Shown here piece by piece: positions 1,278 through 47,252 of a stretch of 61,721 nt of DNA. The notes below the pieces were generated by a model. The model had not been told where the DNA came from. It saw only the letters and a list, made by a program, of their open reading frames with translations, and ran no database searches. How positions within the stretch are numbered: position 1 is the first letter of the stretch; the number at the start of each line of letters is the position of its first letter. Source of the DNA: Candidatus Omnitrophota bacterium (GTDB lineage: Bacteria; Omnitrophota; Gorgyraeia; Gygaellales; Profunditerraquicolaceae); the NCBI GenBank assembly GCA_043808425.1, contig JAZDEW010000072.1, positions 1 to 61,721 on the forward strand, written 5' to 3'. Position numbers and translations under genes: made by a program.

Positions 1278-2216
1278 TTAAACACTAAACTCTAAACTCT
1301 CTATATATCTATTAACTTTCTCTATTGCCTTAGGGTGGCGCATAACCAAAAGATCCGCTCCCGCTTGAATAAGGCTAGTGGCGGTGAGTGCCTCCCAAAT
1401 AATTCCCTGTTGAGGACTAATTTTTGCCTCTTTAGTCTTCCAGGCCTCCTGGCCGATGAAGCAAATAAATGGCGAAGCCAAAACTTTGTCCCCGGACAAA
1501 GCCGCCAGCCTGGAGCGTTCCATAATAGAATAAGCATATTCCAAACCATACCCTAACGCGCCGATAGTCGGATTAATTACTATGCGCTCCAGGCTTAAGC
1601 CCATATCAGAAATTAAAATATTTAACTGTTTGGCAATATTAATATCAATCGGGCTTTCGGCAATAATGCTATGGCCGTCAGCTAATACGCTAGCCACTAA
1701 GGTTTTATAATTATCTTGTACAGCGCAACCAATCAGGCAATGCTCTGAGCTGGCGGCCTCCGAACAAGCCGGCATAATCAGATTATCTTTAGCGTCATCC
1801 CCGCTTCCGGTAATGATTAAAGGAACATTAACTCTATTTAATAATGTAGCAATAAACTTTGAGGCCGCTTGTGGGCTTTTATCTCCAAAATCAGGATGCG
1901 TTCCCTGCATTTTCAAACAAAGCAACTCGGCCTTATATTCATGAACACAAATATCCGCCCAGGCCAAGGGATCATTTATGGCTTTCCCGTACGCGGCAAT
2001 TAACTCTTCATCGAAGTCCAAAGGGGGAATATCCCAAATCTCAAAGGCAATCTTGGGCTTATGAGGAATAACGCCTTCCCTAAACAATAAAGGTAAAGTG
2101 GTTTGCCCGCCGATTTTTATAACCTCGCTGCGAGAACCGCCTTCTGCTTTTTTAGCTCCGATCGTTACAGTGGAAATTATCCCCGGCCATTTTTCAAGCG
2201 CTAATGATGACTCCAT
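1278..2216 (-). CDS. acsD: corrinoid iron-sulfur protein small subunit (CFeSP delta, CdhD-like)
   Basis: The size (about 312 aa), TIM-barrel-like sequence and position between cooC and acsE match acsD. The start was set to the ATG at 2216 (MESSLALEKW), which is preceded by GGGAGG. The ORF-track start is 2231. Confidence 0.8.
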   Translation of the reverse strand: MESSLALEKWPGIISTVTIGAKKAEGGSRSEVIKIGGQTTLPLLFREGVIPHKPKIAFEIWDIPPLDFDEELIAAYGKAINDPLAWADICVHEYKAELLCLKMQGTHPDFGDKSPQAASKFIATLLNRVNVPLIITGSGDDAKDNLIMPACSEAASSEHCLIGCAVQDNYKTLVASVLADGHSIIAESPIDINIAKQLNILISDMGLSLERIVINPTIGALGYGLEYAYSIMERSRLAALSGDKVLASPFICFIGQEAWKTKEAKISPQQGIIWEALTATSLIQAGADLLVMRHPKAIEKVNRYIESLEFSV

Positions 2217-2953
2217 ATTTGGCCTCCCCATGAATTAAGCAGTGTTAAAATTCGCGCGTCTGATTTTAAATCAAAAACTGACCCGCCCCGTAAACTTAAG
2301 TCCTCAATTCGCGGATCCAGCGGCAAGTTTCCTAAATGCTCCAAACCGGTTTCTTTAATTTTATCTTTTTGAATATCTTTATTAAAACGGTTAATCAGAA
2401 GAAAGCTTTTTTTAACTTCAAATTTTAAAATATTGGCTAGCTCGATTATTCTTTTAGCTGATTTTAAACCCACGCCAGAGGCATCCGATACCACCAGCAA
2501 TAAATCCGCAAAACGGCAAGTACGTCGAGACAAGTGCTCTAATCCGGCCTCATTATCCACCACGATATAATCATAATCATTGATTAACCTGGCCATTAAG
2601 CCGCGTAAAACGTTATTTACGTAACAATAACATCCCGGCCCCTCAGGCTTGCCCATACTTAATAAATCAAAACCTTCCTCTTCCTGAATGGCTGCCTGAA
2701 CCTGATGTTGAATAAAACGCTCTTTGGTCATTCCCGCGGGAACTGGATGCAAAGCCGTGGACAGATTATCCAGAATTGTACCCACATTATTCCCTGCCAA
2801 CATACCCAAAACCTCACCTAAATTGCTATTGGGGTCCGCATCGATGGCTAAGATTGAACCCATTTTTTTCTCTTTAAGACAACGGACAATCAGGGCGGCA
2901 ATCGTAGTTTTTCCCGTACCACCTTTTCCGGCCAAGGCAATAACGTATCCCAT
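2201..2953 (-). CDS. cooC: CooC/AcsF-type nickel-insertion ATPase (CODH/ACS maturation factor)
   Basis: It has a deviant Walker A (ALAGKGGTGKTT), a CxC metal motif (GPGCYCYV) and a MinD/ParA-like fold signature. It is embedded in the acs cluster. Confidence 0.85.
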   Translation of the reverse strand: MGYVIALAGKGGTGKTTIAALIVRCLKEKKMGSILAIDADPNSNLGEVLGMLAGNNVGTILDNLSTALHPVPAGMTKERFIQHQVQAAIQEEEGFDLLSMGKPEGPGCYCYVNNVLRGLMARLINDYDYIVVDNEAGLEHLSRRTCRFADLLLVVSDASGVGLKSAKRIIELANILKFEVKKSFLLINRFNKDIQKDKIKETGLEHLGNLPLDPRIEDLSLRGGSVFDLKSDARILTLLNSWGGQIWSHH

Positions 2954-4878
2954 TAGAATTTTACCGTGGGAAACTTGGCCAAATCTGTATGCGGAAAAAA
3001 TAACGCCTGGCTGTATTCCTCCATGTATTTTGAATCCACGGATAATTCAAAATAAGTAATTTTAGAAACTAGCGTATCCGCCATAAACATCGCCTGGCTA
3101 GATAAAAGTATTTCTCGAGAACCAGCCAAAGAGCTATTCCCAATAAAGATAAATTTAGAACGCTCCAAATCCGGCAATAACCCAATACGGATGGCTTTCT
3201 CAATATCCAGGTACGTGCCAAATCCACCGGCGATAAATATCTTAGAAATCGCGGAAAATTCCAAAGCTAAATGTTTAACTAAAATAGCGCAGGCGGAATA
3301 TATTGCCCCCTTGGAACGCTTAAGATTTTCAATATCCGCTTCATTAATCACAATATCCGCTTGCGCCTGAATTTCTTCTTTGAAACAAACCACAAACTCT
3401 TTACCATTAACGCCTGAACGAATCCGCTGGCCGGTGACTTTAATCTTTCCACCCTTATCCATTATTCCGGAATCCAACATTTCGCTGAGCAAATCAATAT
3501 AGCCTGATCCGCAAATGCCCCGGGGTAATTTATCCTGAATCGTCGTATACTTAACGCTGAAATCACTTCTATTTATACTTACTTTTTGAATTGCCCCGCT
3601 ACTGGCGCGCATACCGCTAGTTACCCCGCTGCCTTCAAAGGCCGGGCCGGCCGATGCCGCGCAGGCGACTAAAAAATCACGATTACCTAAGACAATCTCT
3701 CCGTTTGTCCCGATATCAATTAAAATACAGGGCTCTTTTTTTTGATAGATGCCACTGGATAATATTCCCGCGGTGGTATCACCGCCCACATAGCTAGAAA
3801 CTCCGGGAACACAGCTTAATAATCCCCGCGGATTAATCTTGATCCCCGCTTCAGCGGCGCGCAAAACCGGTAAAAAATTTGCAGTAGGCACATACGGCTG
3901 ACGGCGGATATGTGCCGGATCCATGCTTAAAAGCAGATGAATCATCGTCGTGTTTCCCGAACAAACAATGCAATTAACATCATTAAGATCTACCTGGTGC
4001 TCGCTGACCAAATCATTAATGATTTGATTTATCGTATCCGAAACAGCATTATGTAATTTTTCTAAACCATCGGTATTTACCGCATAAACAATGCGGGTAA
4101 TTACATCACTACCAAAAACAGCCTGCTGGTTATAAGTTGCTTTAGTTGCCAAAATTTTCTTTGAATTTAAATTTACCAGCTGCCCGGAAATAGTCGTCGT
4201 TCCAATATCAAAACAAAGCCCAAAATTCCTGGCCGTTGTATCCCCGGGCTCAATCAGAACAATTTCAATCGTATCGTTGCGCCGGCCTAAAGTAACGGTA
4301 ATTTTCCAGGCATAGTCGCGTAATAATTCACCTAGTTGACGAATATTAAATAACCCGGTTGTCAGCCGAGGAAATTCCCCAAAACCGCGCAAGGCCCGAT
4401 ACAATCTTTCTAAATCACTGATACTGTCATTAAGCGTCGGCTCGGGAAGCTCTAAATATAATTTCGTGGCAAAGGGTGAATGGTTAAAGAGCCTATCCTC
4501 AAATTTTGCCTTCACGGATTGAATATCTTCCGCCTTAGAATATAGGCCGCTGAGCCGCTGGCCTAACTCTTCCGGTGTAAGCTGATCAAAATTAATCCGC
4601 GAACTATCCGGAATTAAGACCTCTAAATCACTGTGAATAGTTGTCAAGCAAGCCAAATACACATTATCTTTTTTCTCTTGCGCGGTGATTATTCCATTTG
4701 GCTGGCTATGGACTTGCCCACGGCTAACCGTCACCTTGCATCGCCCGCAAATTCCATCTCCGCCACAGTTAGAGTTAAGATAAACTCCCACAGAAATTGC
4801 TGCGGCAAGAATAGTCTTATCCTTTTCAACGGCAATAGATAAGTTGTCAGGAAGAAATGTAACTTTAAATTTTTGCAT
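2953..4878 (-). CDS. acsV: reductive activator of corrinoid iron-sulfur protein (RACo; 2Fe-2S ferredoxin domain plus ASKHA ATPase)
   Basis: An N-terminal plant-type ferredoxin motif (CGGDGICGRCKV ... C) is followed by a large ASKHA/acetate-kinase-like domain (DIGTTT, DIGTNGE). At 641 aa, the architecture and acs neighbourhood match RACo. Confidence 0.8.
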   Translation of the reverse strand: MQKFKVTFLPDNLSIAVEKDKTILAAAISVGVYLNSNCGGDGICGRCKVTVSRGQVHSQPNGIITAQEKKDNVYLACLTTIHSDLEVLIPDSSRINFDQLTPEELGQRLSGLYSKAEDIQSVKAKFEDRLFNHSPFATKLYLELPEPTLNDSISDLERLYRALRGFGEFPRLTTGLFNIRQLGELLRDYAWKITVTLGRRNDTIEIVLIEPGDTTARNFGLCFDIGTTTISGQLVNLNSKKILATKATYNQQAVFGSDVITRIVYAVNTDGLEKLHNAVSDTINQIINDLVSEHQVDLNDVNCIVCSGNTTMIHLLLSMDPAHIRRQPYVPTANFLPVLRAAEAGIKINPRGLLSCVPGVSSYVGGDTTAGILSSGIYQKKEPCILIDIGTNGEIVLGNRDFLVACAASAGPAFEGSGVTSGMRASSGAIQKVSINRSDFSVKYTTIQDKLPRGICGSGYIDLLSEMLDSGIMDKGGKIKVTGQRIRSGVNGKEFVVCFKEEIQAQADIVINEADIENLKRSKGAIYSACAILVKHLALEFSAISKIFIAGGFGTYLDIEKAIRIGLLPDLERSKFIFIGNSSLAGSREILLSSQAMFMADTLVSKITYFELSVDSKYMEEYSQALFFPHTDLAKFPTVKF

Positions 4879-4945: not shown

Positions 4946-6283
4946 TTACAGCTTACCGCTATTCTTTAAAAATGCTGGTATTCCGGCTGCTTCTTTAGGG
5001 CCGACAATGATCCTAAATCCCGATTGATCCTGAAGATCGCCGCTAATCATGGCCACATAGCCGGGAATAATCAAATTCTTATGTCTAATTACCTTTGCTA
5101 CCCCAAAGCTCTCCAATGATTTTGTAATTGCTTGTGCGTTAAATTTTTCCGCCGCCCAGGCAGTAAGCACAGACATGCCCTGGGTATCGACGCTTAAAAT
5201 ATATGCCGGTATTTTACTAGCCTCCACCTCTGCCAAAACAGTATAATAACTTAAGGAAAAATTAGTGGTAACCAAAACCGGTGAATCCTGATTTGCTTGC
5301 CCGACGGAATAAAGCCGAGAATCAATCTGCAAGGGTTTTTGCGGATCAGTATAAATATTTTGCCGCAAAGTCAAAATTGAAAGAACTTCCCAGGCAGCCA
5401 GGCCTTTAATCAAAACAATCCCGGCATATTTAGCAATATAAGCGCCTGCCTCCATCGCCTCTTCATAAGGATCGGCGCTCTGAACAGTTGCCAAAGTCGG
5501 ATAGCCCAATGCGCGATTTGATTTCTTAAGTGCTTGCCGGCGAATTTGTGTTAAATCCCAGATTTTATCCGTCAGGGGTTTTATCCCGGTATCCAGGACC
5601 AGCTCTTTTACCCCTAAGCTATTGAGCTCCTTAGTCAGTTGACTTAGCTGGTCAATATCCTGCCCGGTTACAACTAAGGGCAACTGGAATTCTTTAGCGA
5701 TGGCAGCGATTTGCGTAAAATTATTCTGCACCGCGGAATAAAGCAGCGGTTTACGCTGGCAGCTGATCGCGGATGCCTGCCTTAAAGCAACCAGGTCGCT
5801 GCTCATCAACATAAGCGGTAAAGTAGTATACTCTAGAAGCAATTTAGTTGCCTCCAGGAATCTTGAGGCATCCGTATTTTGCTTTAGAGCAATCAAATTA
5901 ACTCTAAGCTCCTGGCCAATACGTTCAAATTTTAATTGGTTAATTTTATCTAACCGCTCTTTTATTTGGGTATCGCCCAGATTATCATCAATGATAAAAC
6001 CTACTGCCGGAGGATTACGAAATTTTTCTTCATGCCTAAACATTACTGTTTCATTACCAATATCAATCTTCGATTCAAGATTACCCAGGGTAATTAATTT
6101 AATCGGTGGCAAGGCCTGCGCTTCTAAAATACTCCTAGACTCAGGCGAAAGAAAAGGGCATTTTTCAATCGGCAATACTTTCTTAGCCAACTGCATAGCA
6201 AAAGCCAGGCAAGTAGCTAAACCGCACTGGCGACAATTTGTTTTGGGCAATAACTTATAAATATCTAAACCCGAAAGTGCCAT
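4946..6283 (-). CDS. acsC: corrinoid iron-sulfur protein large subunit (CFeSP gamma, CdhE-like)
   Basis: MALSGLDIYKLLPKTNCRQCGLATCLAFAMQLAKK is the canonical AcsC N-terminal 4Fe-4S motif (CxxCx4C...C). At 445 aa the length matches Moorella AcsC, from memory. The ORF-track start at 6469 adds 62 residues that are simply a translation of the 111-bp tandem repeat, so I reject that extension. Confidence 0.85.
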   Translation of the reverse strand: MALSGLDIYKLLPKTNCRQCGLATCLAFAMQLAKKVLPIEKCPFLSPESRSILEAQALPPIKLITLGNLESKIDIGNETVMFRHEEKFRNPPAVGFIIDDNLGDTQIKERLDKINQLKFERIGQELRVNLIALKQNTDASRFLEATKLLLEYTTLPLMLMSSDLVALRQASAISCQRKPLLYSAVQNNFTQIAAIAKEFQLPLVVTGQDIDQLSQLTKELNSLGVKELVLDTGIKPLTDKIWDLTQIRRQALKKSNRALGYPTLATVQSADPYEEAMEAGAYIAKYAGIVLIKGLAAWEVLSILTLRQNIYTDPQKPLQIDSRLYSVGQANQDSPVLVTTNFSLSYYTVLAEVEASKIPAYILSVDTQGMSVLTAWAAEKFNAQAITKSLESFGVAKVIRHKNLIIPGYVAMISGDLQDQSGFRIIVGPKEAAGIPAFLKNSGKL

Positions 6284-10358: not shown

Positions 10359-11666
10359 TTATTTAACTTGCTTAAAAATCTGAATGGCGATTAAAGTATC
10401 CACCGCGCGCATAATCTGCGTATCGGCTTTATAATCAAAAACTTCTTTAGCCGCTTTATCTGTCTTCTGGTTATCCTGAACCTGCTCAAAGATCTCATCT
10501 AACTTCTTAACCTGCGCTTCATCGGCTTTAACGTCTGGAGCCATTAACTCATCCACCAAAATATCCGGAGTGATTCCCTTGCCGTGAATTATTTTTCCGG
10601 AAGGAGTAAAATAATGGCTCGTAGTTAAACGTAAGGCTGATCCGTCTCTTAAAGGAACAACTGTTTGCACAGAACCTTTACCAAAAGACTTTTTCCCGAT
10701 AATTATGGCGCGCTTATGATCCTGCAAAGCTCCCGCCACAATTTCGCTTCCGGAAGCCGAACCTTCATTAATCAGAATCGCCAGCGGTAACTCTGAATCC
10801 GCATTTTTAGACTCAGAGAAAAATTCCAGATCCCGGTCCTCTTGCCCGCCCCGTGGATGCACAGAATCTTTACGGGGCCTGCCTTTAGTATAAGCAATCA
10901 ACTTATTTGAACCCAAAAATTTTCCGGTTACCTTAACCGCAACATCTAGAAGCCCGCCGGGATTATTACGCAAATCAATAATCAGCGCCTTCATTCTTTG
11001 TTTACTAAGGAGGCCTAGGGCGTTATTTAATTCCGAAAAGGTATTTTCTCGGAATTCACTAAGCCGGATATAGCCAATTTCCTTTTCCAGAATAAGCGCA
11101 TATTTTATATCCTTAATCTTAATTATACCTCTGGTAATTTTAAAATCTAAAAGTTTATTTTCCGACTCTCTTAAGATGGTAAGGTTAACTATCCCTCCGG
11201 GCTCTCCGCGCATTTTCTTAACCGCCTCGGTTAAGGTTATCTCGCGAGTAAGTGAGTCATTAATTTTTATAATACGGTCGTTAGCTTTTATCCCCGCTTT
11301 CCAGGCAGGAGTATCTTCAATGGGAGTGATCACGGTTAACAAACCATCTTTAATGGTGATCTCAATACCCAAACCTCCGAACTTACCTTGAGTATCTACT
11401 TTTAATTCCTCATAGGCTTGCGGATCCATGAATTGGCTATGCGCGTCCAGTGAAGCTAACATGCCTTTTAATGCCCCATAAATTAAATCCTTAGTCTTAG
11501 TCTGCTCCACATATTCTTTTTGAATAATGGCCAGGGTGTCAGAAAATACCTCAACCTGCTTATACAGCTCGTCTTGACTCCTCTTTTTATTTTCGGAAAA
11601 ACCTGACCGGATACCGATAAATATAAACACTACAAACAAAGAAACACACAATAGCTTTTTAAACAT
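10359..11666 (-). CDS. ctpA: carboxy-terminal processing protease (S41 family) with PDZ domain
   Basis: Contains FGGLGIEI, a PDZ segment (AGIKANDRIIKIND), DLRNNPGGLL, GSASGSEI and SFGKGSVQ. Confidence 0.9.
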   Translation of the reverse strand: MFKKLLCVSLFVVFIFIGIRSGFSENKKRSQDELYKQVEVFSDTLAIIQKEYVEQTKTKDLIYGALKGMLASLDAHSQFMDPQAYEELKVDTQGKFGGLGIEITIKDGLLTVITPIEDTPAWKAGIKANDRIIKINDSLTREITLTEAVKKMRGEPGGIVNLTILRESENKLLDFKITRGIIKIKDIKYALILEKEIGYIRLSEFRENTFSELNNALGLLSKQRMKALIIDLRNNPGGLLDVAVKVTGKFLGSNKLIAYTKGRPRKDSVHPRGGQEDRDLEFFSESKNADSELPLAILINEGSASGSEIVAGALQDHKRAIIIGKKSFGKGSVQTVVPLRDGSALRLTTSHYFTPSGKIIHGKGITPDILVDELMAPDVKADEAQVKKLDEIFEQVQDNQKTDKAAKEVFDYKADTQIMRAVDTLIAIQIFKQVK

Positions 11667-29638: not shown

Positions 29639-29648
29639 AATTTTTAAA

Positions 29649-30156
29649 GGCAGGCAGAATAAGCCGGGTTCTGTCTTGAGGCGCAAACTTGCGCCTCAAC
29701 AGTGGCTATTCCTCTCAATTTCCGTGTTACCACGGTAACTTTAGCAGCTTTACCCCCACACCCAGCATAGCTGGGTGTGGGGGCTTACCCGAAATTGCTT
29801 CCCGTTGAAAACGGAAAACGCGCCGGATCAGCACGCGCCCCATGAGCCGCATTAAACGACTCCGGGAACTCATCTCCTATTCTACTTTGCTCCACGTAGA
29901 GATTGCCGCGTTTCACCCCCCAGACTCAGCATAGCTGGGTGTGGGGCTCGTCTCTGTGGCTCTCATTGCCCGCATTTTATATCTCTAGGCAATGATCCCG
30001 AGGCGCAGCTTTTTTAAGCCAACGCCAAGAGATAATCCTCCTCGGTTAATTATGCCGAGTGGTAGGCGTTACCTACTACGTTATCCTCTGGAGCCCGGAC
30101 TTTCCTCCCCCACACCCAGTTTGCTGGGTGTGGGGGCAACCACTTCCTGCCTGCCT
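29649..30156 (-). ncRNA. rnpB: RNase P RNA, bacterial type A, unusually long (about 508 nt)
   Basis: The minus strand carries the universally conserved P4 halves: GAGGAAAGTCCGGGCTCC (complement of 30086-30103) and ACAGAACCCGGCTTAT (complement of 29659-29674). P1 is GGCAGGCAG/CTGCCTGCC. There is a GGTAACGCC hairpin and an ACAGAGA J11/12-like element. A TATAAT box lies on the minus strand at 30172-30167. Confidence 0.9.
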
Positions 30157-44720: not shown

Positions 44721-45645
44721 TACTTCTTAACCTTTCCCTGACCAGATATCCTGCCCCAATAATTCCGGCATTAATTCCCAGCTTAGCTTGAACTATCTTT
44801 ACTCTGCTTGCCTGCACCCGCATGGCGCGGAGTAAAATTGTATCTTGAATACTCGTAAACAACACCTTACCAACACAAGAAACCCCTCCGCCAATGACAA
44901 TCAGATCAAGGTTAAGCAAATTTACCACCCCGCTCAAAGCCAGGCCCAGTTTTTTACCCATTTGGCTCCAAAAATTTATTGCCCGGAGATTATTCTGACC
45001 GGCTAAAACACTTACTCTTTCCAGAGTAATCAGAGGCCCAAATAATTTACGCGCCTCTTTAATAATTTTATTATTACCCACGTAGGCCTCCAGGCACCCC
45101 CGAGCGCCACAGCCACACAAAGGGCCTTTTTCATTAAGCAAAAGGTGCCCGGCTTCACCAGCGGCATTATCCGCCCCCCGGTAGAGTAGATCATTAATAA
45201 TTAAGCCTCCGCCCACACCCGTGCCCAAGGTCAGGCATAACACATTTTTATATTTTCTTGCCGCGCCAGCCTTATGCTCTGCCAGAGTCATTAGCTTAGC
45301 ATCATTATCCAGAAAAACTGACAGCTTAATTTTCTCTTCCAAAATTTTTTTAAGCTTTACCTCTTTCCATCCTGGAATATTCGGCAAAAAATGCACAATT
45401 CCTTTCAAGGTATCCACCGGCCCAGGCACCCCTATACCCACCCCTAAAATCGCCGAACGCTTCAACTTTTGGTTTATAATAAAACTTTCTACCGAATCAA
45501 TAATACACTGAATAAGCTTAAGCTGATTATCAAAACTCTTTGTGCTAAAAGAGCTTTTGGCCTTAATCTTTAAGCTACTATCCAGCAAAGCGCATTTTAA
45601 ATTGGTTCCACCCAAGTCTATCCCAATAATAAATTTTTTAACCAT
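44710..45645 (-). CDS. ROK family sugar kinase (glucokinase-like)
   Basis: Contains IGIDLGGTNLK, GAGVGGG-type motifs and the ROK zinc motif GHLLLNEKGPLCGCGARGCLE. Confidence 0.85.
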   Translation of the reverse strand: MVKKFIIGIDLGGTNLKCALLDSSLKIKAKSSFSTKSFDNQLKLIQCIIDSVESFIINQKLKRSAILGVGIGVPGPVDTLKGIVHFLPNIPGWKEVKLKKILEEKIKLSVFLDNDAKLMTLAEHKAGAARKYKNVLCLTLGTGVGGGLIINDLLYRGADNAAGEAGHLLLNEKGPLCGCGARGCLEAYVGNNKIIKEARKLFGPLITLERVSVLAGQNNLRAINFWSQMGKKLGLALSGVVNLLNLDLIVIGGGVSCVGKVLFTSIQDTILLRAMRVQASRVKIVQAKLGINAGIIGAGYLVRERLRSNVE

Positions 45646-45729
45646 TGTGGTATTTTATATTAAAATAGTTAGATTTTCAAGGGATAAATAATTATTCTAT
45701 TCTACCAAGGCCAGCCGCCATATAGCTGC

Positions 45730-46186
45730 CGTGGGCCCCCACTGCAATAATTGGCGATCAGGCTGTCGAGCCTTGCCTTTCGCCGCACCGCTAGATTTTC
45801 CCCTGCGAGGAAAATCTACGCTTCAGCAAAAATTCTCGCTCTGCCTAGACATATATTGGGGGCAACCGTGCCCGCTCGAATTTTTGAGATGCTGCTCAAG
45901 CCAAGGCTCGCCAGCCACTCATAACATTACCAGTTGGTAAGCTTTCCGGCTTTTGCTGGAGGCACAATTAGAAGATTTTCGGCAGTTGTGTGCAAGGAAT
46001 TACGTCGAGCGTAGGCGGTGTCTTTTTAGCGTAAGGAATACGCCGGAGCGAGACGTAAACCGCAGCACACGGCGAAAATCTTCGTGCCAGAAGCAAGAGC
46101 CGGAAAGCTTATGTGTTGGCATATTATCAGTGAAAGACCAAATACGCGATAGCCTGCCCGCCAATTATTGTGGCGGGGACCCGTTA
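45730..46186. ncRNA. candidate large structured non-coding RNA of unknown class (strand undetermined, plus weakly favoured)
   Basis: The 611-bp gap has no credible ORF; the three track ORFs are Cys/Arg/Trp-rich. G+C is about 52% by hand count against roughly 35-43% in flanking lines. Long-range complementary segments form an outer helix plus two independently closed branches; coordinates are given in the finding. Confidence 0.5.
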
Positions 46187-46256
46187 TCCTGCGAACAGAC
46201 ATAATCAGCAGAACTCGCATAATCACGGTTAAAATAAAACAACGAAAATCTAGTTA

Positions 46257-47252
46257 TTAGGCCGGGGGAAAACAAACTTTATTTTTTCCGGATTCCTTGG
46301 CTAAGTATAAAGCCTGATCTGCCAAATCAACTAAATTTTGCGTATTCAGGGCATTGTCCGGAAAAATAGAAACACCGATACTTACCGTCACCTTCAGCTC
46401 TTCATCGTAGGCCTTAACTATCTGCGCGGCAATAGACTGACGAATACGTTCCGCGGCAAAACTAGCCTGCTGTTTATTCGTTTCTGCCAAAACAACAGAA
46501 ATCTCCTCTCCTCCATAACGGCCAGCAAAATCAATTTGCCTAACCGCCAGCAAAATAGTTTTAGCTACCCGGCGCAAAATAGCATCTCCGACCAAGTGCC
46601 CATAATGATCATTAAACTGTTTAAAATTATCTATATCAATCATTAAAAAAGATAAGCGTAATTTATTTTTCCTGGAACGTTTAAGCTCTTCGCTAAAACG
46701 CTCTAAAAAATATTTCCGGCAATAAATATTGGTAAGCGTATCGGTAATCGTTAAGCTCTGAACCTTTTGATAGAATAGGGCTCTTCTTAGCCCGATTAAA
46801 AATTGTTGCGCAAGAATCCCAAATTTCTCTTTATCGGCTTCTAAGATCCTTTCCACTGCCAGGTAACCCGCAACTTTATCGTCTTCCAGGCTTAAAGGTT
46901 GAATCAAATAATTTTTATATTTAATTAAATCCGCGCTATCCTTAATATATCGACAATCGCCGATATCAATATGTTTAATTAGATTCTTTTTAAAAATTAA
47001 AAAAATCTTCTCTTCATCGAGGCTCTGAGAGATATCTTTAGTTAGTTCATAAAGCGCCAGCGTATCATCAAATCTATTGCTCAACAGATTGTTTTTTAAA
47101 CTTAAACTCTTTTTTGAATCATTTAAACGATTAAGCTCATCTCGCAAACCGTTATAATCCGCGACTTTGCGCTCAAGGCGGCCGGAAAAAACCTCTCTGC
47201 AAATTAAACCCAAAAGAATAGTAATAATTAAAAGTAAAATTAGGTTAAACAT
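46257..47252 (-). CDS. diguanylate cyclase (TM helix, sensor region, GGDEF domain)
   Basis: It has an N-terminal TM helix. The GGDEF domain has RYGGEEISVV (GGEEI variant) and FKQFNDHYGH. Confidence 0.8.
   Translation of the reverse strand: MFNLILLLIITILLGLICREVFSGRLERKVADYNGLRDELNRLNDSKKSLSLKNNLLSNRFDDTLALYELTKDISQSLDEEKIFLIFKKNLIKHIDIGDCRYIKDSADLIKYKNYLIQPLSLEDDKVAGYLAVERILEADKEKFGILAQQFLIGLRRALFYQKVQSLTITDTLTNIYCRKYFLERFSEELKRSRKNKLRLSFLMIDIDNFKQFNDHYGHLVGDAILRRVAKTILLAVRQIDFAGRYGGEEISVVLAETNKQQASFAAERIRQSIAAQIVKAYDEELKVTVSIGVSIFPDNALNTQNLVDLADQALYLAKESGKNKVCFPPA

Follow-up and report, generated by a model that had tools for sequence, protein, structure and literature searches.

A GC-rich intergenic block in an Omnitrophota genome is a composite of two families of dispersed, structured elements

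The window analysed here is the whole 61,721-nt stretch of contig JAZDEW010000072.1 from a Candidatus Omnitrophota bacterium (assembly GCA_043808425.1, forward strand). Between its ROK kinase and GGDEF genes lies a block (45730-46186) that is noncoding and structured far beyond chance. The block is a composite of two modules, A and B, and an outer inverted repeat, with the A-B unit nested inside. In related genomes and metagenomes, A and B are discrete intergenic elements that lie in either orientation, with some syntenic sites filled and others empty. The reading adopted here, for which belief and doubt are evenly balanced, is that A and B are non-autonomous, probably mobile structured repeats resembling REPINs, ERIC sequences or miniature inverted-repeat transposable elements (MITEs), and that their folded single strand is recognized in trans. 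The parts of the block are listed below in window coordinates; L-numbers denote loci fetched for comparison.

45733-45768, no strand: 5′ arm of the outer repeat (GGGCCCCCACTGCAATAATTGGCGATCAGGCTGTCG), pairing with 46147-46182
45761-45917 (approximate), plus strand: module A, a three-way junction matched by covariance model R1, with compensatory changes across the family
45792-45818, plus strand: P2 hairpin of A, variable in its stem; 10 bp (45792-45801 with 45809-45818), found by the repeat finder
45836-45877, plus strand: conserved core of A, consisting of TCGCTCT (45836-45842), the short P4 hairpin and AACCGTGCCCGCTC (45864-45877)
45938-46111, plus strand: module B, a 175-nt rod-like hairpin, supported by 43 copies and by covariation
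45971-46083, plus strand: inner part of B, bounded by the family-wide helix GAAGATTTTCG/CGAAAATCTTC (11/11 pairs, 45971-45981 with 46073-46083)
46113-46135, no strand: window-specific spacer after B, which in the minimum free energy (MFE) fold pairs with the A-B linker (45914-45937) and extends the B stem
46147-46182, no strand: 3′ arm of the outer repeat (CGATAGCCTGCCCGCCAATTATTGTGGCGGGGACCC), found by the repeat finder and without counterpart in L002

The spacer that holds the block runs for 611 bp from the ROK kinase start (45645) to the GGDEF stop (46257), and both bordering genes are on the minus strand and Pfam-confirmed. A first-pass annotation of the sequence had described this gap, estimated the block at about 52% G+C and drawn it as a noncoding, multi-branch fold, and each of these descriptions was borne out. 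G+C content is 51.9% over 45730-46186 against 41.0% over the whole window, every helix that had been paired by eye was recovered in place by reading back the sequence and by a repeat finder, and the MFE fold shows a three-branch layout. The plus strand folds at -209 kcal/mol, compared with -149 +/- 6 for shuffled sequences (z -9.5, 0/100 as good), and the minus strand at -215 kcal/mol (z -10.7). Because both strands fold equally well, the fold of the block alone indicates neither RNA nor strand.

The block matches no catalogued RNA family, in line with the first-pass view. Rfam 15 returned only RNase P and three tRNAs over the whole window at gathering thresholds, chance-level matches over 45600-46300 at E values up to 10, and, at the same threshold, nothing at the elements of 20 related loci and L085. 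Searches of the accessible literature for Omnitrophota or Aminicenantes RNA motifs and repeats turned up no description of A or B.

ROK homologues assign the window to Candidatus Omnitrophota, and an exact look-up of its ROK protein gave no record. In relatives, the gene order ACC, ABC, GAF-GGDEF, GGDEF, ROK, LptD, Ugd is kept (ROK proteins 82-87% identical), and the GGDEF-ROK spacer takes three other forms. L001 and L079 have an empty spacer of 50-52 bp. The L002 spacer, at 349 bp, contains B, 94.7% identical to the window copy, with a shortened A and no outer helix; two compensated pairs (C-G to A-T and G-C to T-A) distinguish the two B copies. In three further relatives the spacer is occupied by an unrelated hairpin repeat (GGGGACGGTTCTATTTTT...AAAAATAGAACCGTCCCC), of which the window has no copy at up to two mismatches:

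L006, 3893-3965: unrelated hairpin repeat in the GGDEF-ROK spacer
L080, 2855-2945: unrelated hairpin repeat in the GGDEF-ROK spacer
L081, 25-115: unrelated hairpin repeat in the GGDEF-ROK spacer

The metagenome-assembled genome (MAG) C20_metabat.bin.26 has B at three other loci, yet none in this spacer. Since the spacer is empty, differently filled or partly filled among relatives, the block is an insertion-like, variable feature, and the GGDEF-ROK spacer looks like a hot spot of hairpin elements. The loop of the GGGGACGGTTCTATTTTT...AAAAATAGAACCGTCCCC repeat in L081 itself contains a second, nested hairpin.

The outer arms are 36 nt long and 81% complementary (29/36), with a 12/12 core (CAATAATTGGCG/CGCCAATTATTG). 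They have no similar sequence in about 200 related loci, and other A-B units lack an enclosing helix and fold as two adjacent domains; the three-way junction of the window is therefore a locus-specific nesting. At the unrelated locus L050, A and B together are 93% identical to the window over 352 nt without the outer helix, and the spacer at 46113-46135 is conserved neither there nor in other A-B units. The first-pass proposal of a candidate large structured RNA thus survives in part: structure, noncoding character and lack of an Rfam family hold, and a single conserved 460-nt unit does not, as the outer helix occurs at no other locus and A and B are independent modules. The proximity to diguanylate cyclase genes and to the glk-lptD operon, pointed out in the first-pass annotation, is incidental, with other copies lying between unrelated housekeeping genes. 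The same annotation had named many-copy MITEs or foldback repeats as what would overturn it, and related genomes largely show that situation, with at least 10 B copies in MAG nzgw297. It is very improbable that one 460-nt RNA, with the junction of outer helix, A and B as its functional unit and possibly tied to cyclic di-GMP or envelope genes, explains the block; the great stability of the complete fold and the 29/36 pairing of the arms fit such an RNA, but those arms are unique to the locus, other A-B units are unenclosed, A and B occur separately, and close relatives have an empty spacer and copies elsewhere have unrelated neighbours.

The outer pairing also gives the window locus alone a resemblance to a retron, with a1/a2-like end pairing, short 5′ hairpins and a long 3′ hairpin. 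Unlike a retron, it has no downstream reverse transcriptase, the enclosing helix is missing from all other copies, and there are many copies per genome. A retron msr-msd was rejected on the flanking genes (GGDEF and ROK) and on the restriction of the outer pairing to this locus.

Module A is closed by GGCTG/CAGCC (45761-45765 with 45913-45917) and CGAGCCTTG/CAAGGCTCG. Its P2 loop, CCCTGCGAG at 45801-45809, is the family motif CCCWGCGWG, whose columns are invariant on a stem whose positions show all four Watson-Crick pair types. The P3 helix CAAAAATTC/GAATTTTTG (45827-45835 with 45878-45886) flanks the conserved core, and core columns are invariant in alignments A2, A3 and A4. The P3 and P4 helices covary. 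Thirteen A copies share the invariant loop CCCWGCGWG, TCGCTCT and AACCnTGCCCGCTC, and about 30 loop and junction nucleotides of A are invariant; the P2 loop and core motifs were part of the search pattern, so this invariance is partly due to selection of the matches. A pseudoknot between the P2 loop and TCGCTCT was considered, and the W positions of the loop do not covary.

A metagenome scan for the A motifs gave at least 120 matches. Among the matches listed, nhmmer placed A in 105 places and B in 7, so that about 98 of the 105 A copies are without B. Since the A core mostly occurs without B in metagenomes, it is an independent and much wider family. One A subtype (AAAACACG...ACGGTTTT) is found on a contig that encodes a PurC with about 81% identity to proteins named Candidatus Aminicenantes, and the A core is likely, from this sequence comparison, to be present in an Aminicenantes-type contig beyond Omnitrophota.

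Covariance model R1 was constructed from 33 sequences of the Aminicenantes-type subtype only, with no Omnitrophota among them, and describes a three-way junction of 119 positions and 39 pairs. It matches the window at 45777-45898 on the plus strand only (61.1 bits, E=1.3e-13) and also matches A copies adjoining B in Omnitrophota loci. The A module of the window fits the family definition of R1, namely the three-way junction, the P2 loop CCCWGCGWG, TCGCTCT and AACCnTGCCCGCTC. In 105 distinct R1 matches, 88.9% of cells are paired and compensatory changes occur in 36/39 pairs; the covariation score of 0.563 compares with 0.159 in shuffles and 0.07-0.11 in slid controls, in an alignment that was itself fitted to R1. 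For P2, P3 and P4, an independent anchor-based count free of gaps agrees with this result. MAFFT misaligned the variable stems of 116 A cores, so that RNAalifold gave a poor structure on that alignment, and the anchor-based counting and the covariance-model alignment were used in its place. Between non-orthologous A copies, similarity ends sharply about 50 nt on each side of the core. The outer stem of A differs between subfamilies, and flanks extend the palindrome.

Several further observations concern A copies. Three contigs carry inverted pairs of A cores, 80 nt to 2 kb apart, which could mediate inversion of the DNA between them:

L116, 10358-10474 (plus) and 10694-10806 (minus): inverted A-core pair
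L095, 1920-2037 (plus) and 2118-2236 (minus): inverted A-core pair
L145, 3152-3268 (minus) and 5351-5467 (plus): inverted A-core pair

A match to group II intron domain V/VI (RF00029, 41 bits; L090, 39-111) about 1.1 kb from an A core is probably a coincidence. In L176 (about 3150-3225), an A copy begins about 30 nt past an apparent tRNA or tmRNA-like 3′ end (GGTTCGACTCCTGTCAGGCGCAC), and in L139 and L171 A copies begin right after terminator-like hairpins. The motifs CCCAGC, CUCGCU and GGGCAAC occur in the same order as in the hepatitis delta virus ribozyme; this likeness was judged coincidental, as the helices do not correspond.

Module B is bounded by 28-nt arms (45938-45965 with 46084-46111) that are 86% complementary and contain a 14/14 core. 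Its paralogues carry a compensated variant, GAAATTTTTCG/CGAAAAATTTC, of the family-wide helix. B has conserved, asymmetric internal loops (AATTA; AAGGAA opposite ACCGCA) and, between GGCA and GTGTGC, a hypervariable insert of 4-20 nt that sometimes forms a mini-hairpin. A scan of one genome per GTDB species with the pattern GAAGATTTTCG-N76-106-CGAAAATCTTC returned 70 loci against about one expected by chance; roughly half of these are an unrelated repeat in Blastocatellia and Actinomycetota MAGs, or chance, and nhmmer identified 43 true B copies in Omnitrophota-type loci. Hosts of B are Omnitrophota MAGs and a few MAGs labelled Planctomycetales or Gammaproteobacteria, among which L042 and L044 at least have neighbouring genes 81-89% identical to Omnitrophota ones. 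About 27 of the 43 copies have no detectable A.

Among 39 distinct B copies, 94.6% of cells are paired and 19/52 pairs show compensatory changes, values matched by none of the shuffles (0/500) and by none of the slid controls. With the 36/39 pairs in A, these counts support the helices drawn in the first-pass annotation when they are followed into relatives. Forward-strand nhmmer scores of B are far higher than reverse-strand scores. At shared positions, B is more conserved than its mostly coding flanks, with identities of 94 vs 80%, 91 vs 77.5% and 94 vs 82%. Many B copies end in (TA)AAGCTTTCCGG...CCGGAAAGCTT(TA); because TA is self-complementary, a target-site duplication at the ends of B is indistinguishable from an extension of the stem.

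In the unrelated element recovered by the B pattern, heptamer-like arrays of GATTGAAGATT(TTCG) and their reverse complement surround a unique stretch of about 80 nt. Blastocatellia NZW_1522 and Actinomycetota EBPR_ori4bin.3 each have this multi-copy element at 12 to about 20 loci (L010, L013, L014, L019, L021 and about 25 others).

The arrangement of A and B is constant relative to each other and free relative to genes. In all loci holding both (22/22), A precedes B on the same strand, mostly with a gap below 40 nt and in two cases with a small open reading frame (ORF) between them. All B copies are intergenic, typically 5-60 nt past a stop codon. Relative to neighbouring genes, A is sense in 34 cases and antisense in 24, and B is sense in about 9 and antisense in about 15. 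L018 and L048 have orthologous spacers, with the same flanking genes on both sides, in which the A-B unit lies in opposite orientation; L023 and L046 share only a DHS-like flank, and L023 is oriented as L018 and L046 as L048. Several contigs start or stop inside the element, for example in L004, L057, L071 and L077. ORF clustering found no recurrent neighbouring gene family, only orthologous housekeeping genes. With at least 10 B copies in one MAG and syntenic spacers that are either empty or filled, the elements show both the multi-copy occurrence and the insertion polymorphism of MITEs.

That A and B have sharp ends, occur in many copies, are gained and lost, flip in orientation, become nested and lack a promoter argues that they are dispersed, non-autonomous and probably mobile or recombining. 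That the loops are invariant and asymmetric, that paralogues and positional orthologues differ by compensated changes, that conservation exceeds that of coding flanks and that the A-B polarity is fixed argues for selection on a folded single strand in each copy. A and B behave as non-autonomous mobile or recombining elements do, with many copies per genome and gain or loss between close relatives. In the proposed mechanism, their folded single strand, DNA or RNA, would be recognized by a trans-encoded factor, for example a nuclease, a recombinase or an RNA-binding protein; recognition in trans would explain the combination of covarying stems and invariant loops. After insertion, a hairpin would be transcribed together with any adjacent gene that reads into it.

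Several observations weigh against this proposal. The 61.7-kb window holds only one copy of the block, by self-BLAST, nhmmer and covariance model. The fetched loci, about 1.3 Mb in total, showed no gene for a transposase, recombinase, reverse transcriptase or HUH enzyme next to any copy, and no autonomous parent element or insertion sequence (IS) with the same ends was found in these loci. Inspection by eye gave no clear target-site duplication, the flanks extending the palindrome instead. Unlike in classical MITEs, the outer stems vary and the interior is conserved. The roughly 30 invariant nucleotides common to Omnitrophota and the Aminicenantes-type contig are more typical of a functional RNA, and the fact that copies are better conserved in situ than coding flanks suggests that they are either useful to the host or subject to gene conversion among themselves.

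Dispersed hairpin repeats are a known kind of element, and the closest parallels to A and B are found among them. Like repetitive extragenic palindromic (REP) sequences, REPINs and bacterial interspersed mosaic elements, A and B are dispersed, intergenic, hairpin-forming and multi-copy, lie in either orientation and often stand just past stop codons. As in REP/REPIN systems, which are mobilized in trans by RAYT transposases, the elements persist at orthologous sites and contain no gene, and any mobilizing enzyme would have to be supplied in trans. A REP unit has a length of 20-40 nt, carries a conserved GTAG-type tetranucleotide and is lineage-specific, whereas A and B units are 160-175 nt long, A is branched, and its approximately 30 invariant loop and junction nucleotides are common to different phyla.

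The ERIC/IRU, Correia/NEMIS, RUP, BOX and Rickettsia RPE repeats are imperfectly palindromic sequences, about 100-200 nt in length, located in intergenic regions that are transcribed. They vary in presence at orthologous sites, have size variants arising from internal insertions, and are thought to work as RNA hairpins within neighbouring mRNAs. A and B resemble these long palindromic intergenic repeats by description, and sequence kinship is not expected. Unlike ERIC-type foldbacks, A is multi-branched with invariant loops, and the host phyla are uncultivated. A branched, sequence-invariant, cross-phylum core such as that of A is unusual among dispersed hairpin repeats.

A second explanation, which is somewhat unlikely, is that A and A-B are genes for structured RNAs of a new class that act in trans and are read from the plus strand of the window, antisense to the flanking operons. 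Such an RNA might be a ribonucleoprotein (RNP) scaffold, a ribozyme or a guide-like RNA comparable to HEARO/omega RNAs, multi-copy either as a gene family or by riding mobile DNA, with B as its 3′ domain or terminator. The very strong covariation with invariant loops and junctions in at least two phyla, the covariance-model and nhmmer matches on one strand only or far better on it, the A-then-B polarity (22/22), the compensated differences between paralogues inside one MAG, the conservation above coding flanks, and an internal loop of B that varies by an optional hairpin and a hypervariable insert are all consistent with an RNA. Against it, a promoter scan found no sigma-70-like promoter at the ends of the block, no intrinsic terminator stands at either end (only an internal 6-bp stem matched), and the upstream flanks of 26 copies, compared by eye, share no motif past the first stem. 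Presence, absence and orientation flips at syntenic sites also argue against a conventional RNA gene.

Base-pair composition bears on the same question from both sides. On the plus strand, A stems in the covariance-model alignment contain 92 G-U against 64 A-C among 3305 Watson-Crick cells (about 1.4x), anchor-based counts give about 87 against 47, and B stems contain 39 against 29. This modest G-U excess is weak evidence for the plus strand. G-U makes up only about 2.7% of paired cells in A and A-C is nearly as common, which is atypical for an RNA constrained on a single strand.

HEARO and IscB-TnpB omega-RNAs and IS110 bridge RNAs are known as orphan copies without a protein gene, and A and B share with them large size, ornate structure, multi-copy occurrence and a conserved scaffold with variable segments. 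Unlike these RNAs, no copy examined has an IscB, TnpB or IS110 gene beside it, there is no Rfam match to HEARO, and no terminal guide-like segment was identified in A or B. A riboswitch or cis-regulatory leader was rejected on the unrelated housekeeping neighbours and mixed orientation, and an intrinsic terminator because no terminator-like site stands at the block ends. In its most specific form, the RNA explanation makes A an undescribed, widespread RNA class of about 120-170 nt, found in no fewer than two phyla, Omnitrophota and Aminicenantes, and on hundreds of contigs from metagenomes, with a biochemical activity of its own and B as an Omnitrophota-specific 3′ domain. This is a tentative idea that invites more doubt than belief; the activity might be that of a self-cleaving ribozyme or of the RNA partner of an unrecognized mobile-element enzyme, and the variable internal loop of B could then carry specificity.

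A third explanation, that A and B are single-stranded-DNA recombination or nicking sites comparable to integron attC sites, IS200/IS605 or IS91 ends or rolling-circle origins, is quite improbable. It would make the P2 hairpin a recognition or nick site and B copies the boundaries of cassettes. An invariant 7-9-nt loop on a freely covarying stem is the architecture of a HUH-nuclease site, the Watson-Crick constraint is near-symmetric with G-U roughly equal to A-C, and element orientation is independent of neighbouring genes. The only cassette-like feature is a set of three inverted B pairs, each bracketing a small Pfam-less ORF (L012, 1059-2140; L032, 1954-2819; L045, 4637-6034). Between L012 and L032, flanks including the B copies align at about 85% while the 430-670 nt between the B copies are non-homologous, so that a variable cassette is delimited by B pairs, an arrangement that speaks for a role in recombination. 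Near the copies, however, there was no gene for an integrase or for a HUH or Y1 transposase. The ORFs between A and B or between B copies, in which a Y1 transposase of about 150 aa was suspected, have no Pfam match and resemble small membrane or secreted proteins. There are also no cassette arrays, and attC sites in particular were rejected, as copies are scattered among housekeeping genes and GTTRRRY cores are absent, by eye, from element ends. Pattern scans of viral contigs found neither A nor B, and BLASTN of the block against plasmid and phage collections gave no match. Finally, A and B are far larger and more branched than known single-stranded-DNA sites.

Whether read as mobile repeats or as RNAs, the elements matter for two phyla that are abundant and uncultivated and have almost no characterized non-coding elements. 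A and B are two covariance-supported structured families missing from Rfam 15, one of them cross-phylum with sequence-invariant loops. If they are mobile, as proposed here, they would represent a new hairpin-based mobilization system, and phylogenetic profiling could be used to look for its enzyme; as RNAs, they would make module A a candidate new ribozyme or RNP class. In practice, A and B break assemblies and can pass for genes or for single large RNAs, which makes a model for masking and annotation useful.

Other features of the locus lie outside the elements themselves. The promoter scan placed one candidate in the spacer:

45652-45680, minus strand: candidate sigma-70-like promoter of the ROK kinase gene, TTGAAA-17-TAAAAT (10/12 matches)

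This predicted promoter is outside and downstream of the block, and its sequence is kept in all relatives, including those without the element. A 15-nt inverted repeat, AATAGTTAGATTTTC/GAAAATCTAGTTATT (13/15 paired; 45664-45678 and 46244-46258), encloses the entire spacer, and one of its arms overlaps the -35 region of the ROK promoter. The octamer AGATTTTC/GAAAATCT, which is also the P2 stem of A and part of the invariant helix of B, occurs six times within about 600 nt, and the full 9-mer TAGATTTTC has 5 occurrences in the window where 1.25 would be expected. Elsewhere in the window, at 29644-30156 on the minus strand, the class A bacterial RNase P RNA match spans 513 nt against a model of 367 positions, which implies large insertions in the RNase P RNA of this lineage.

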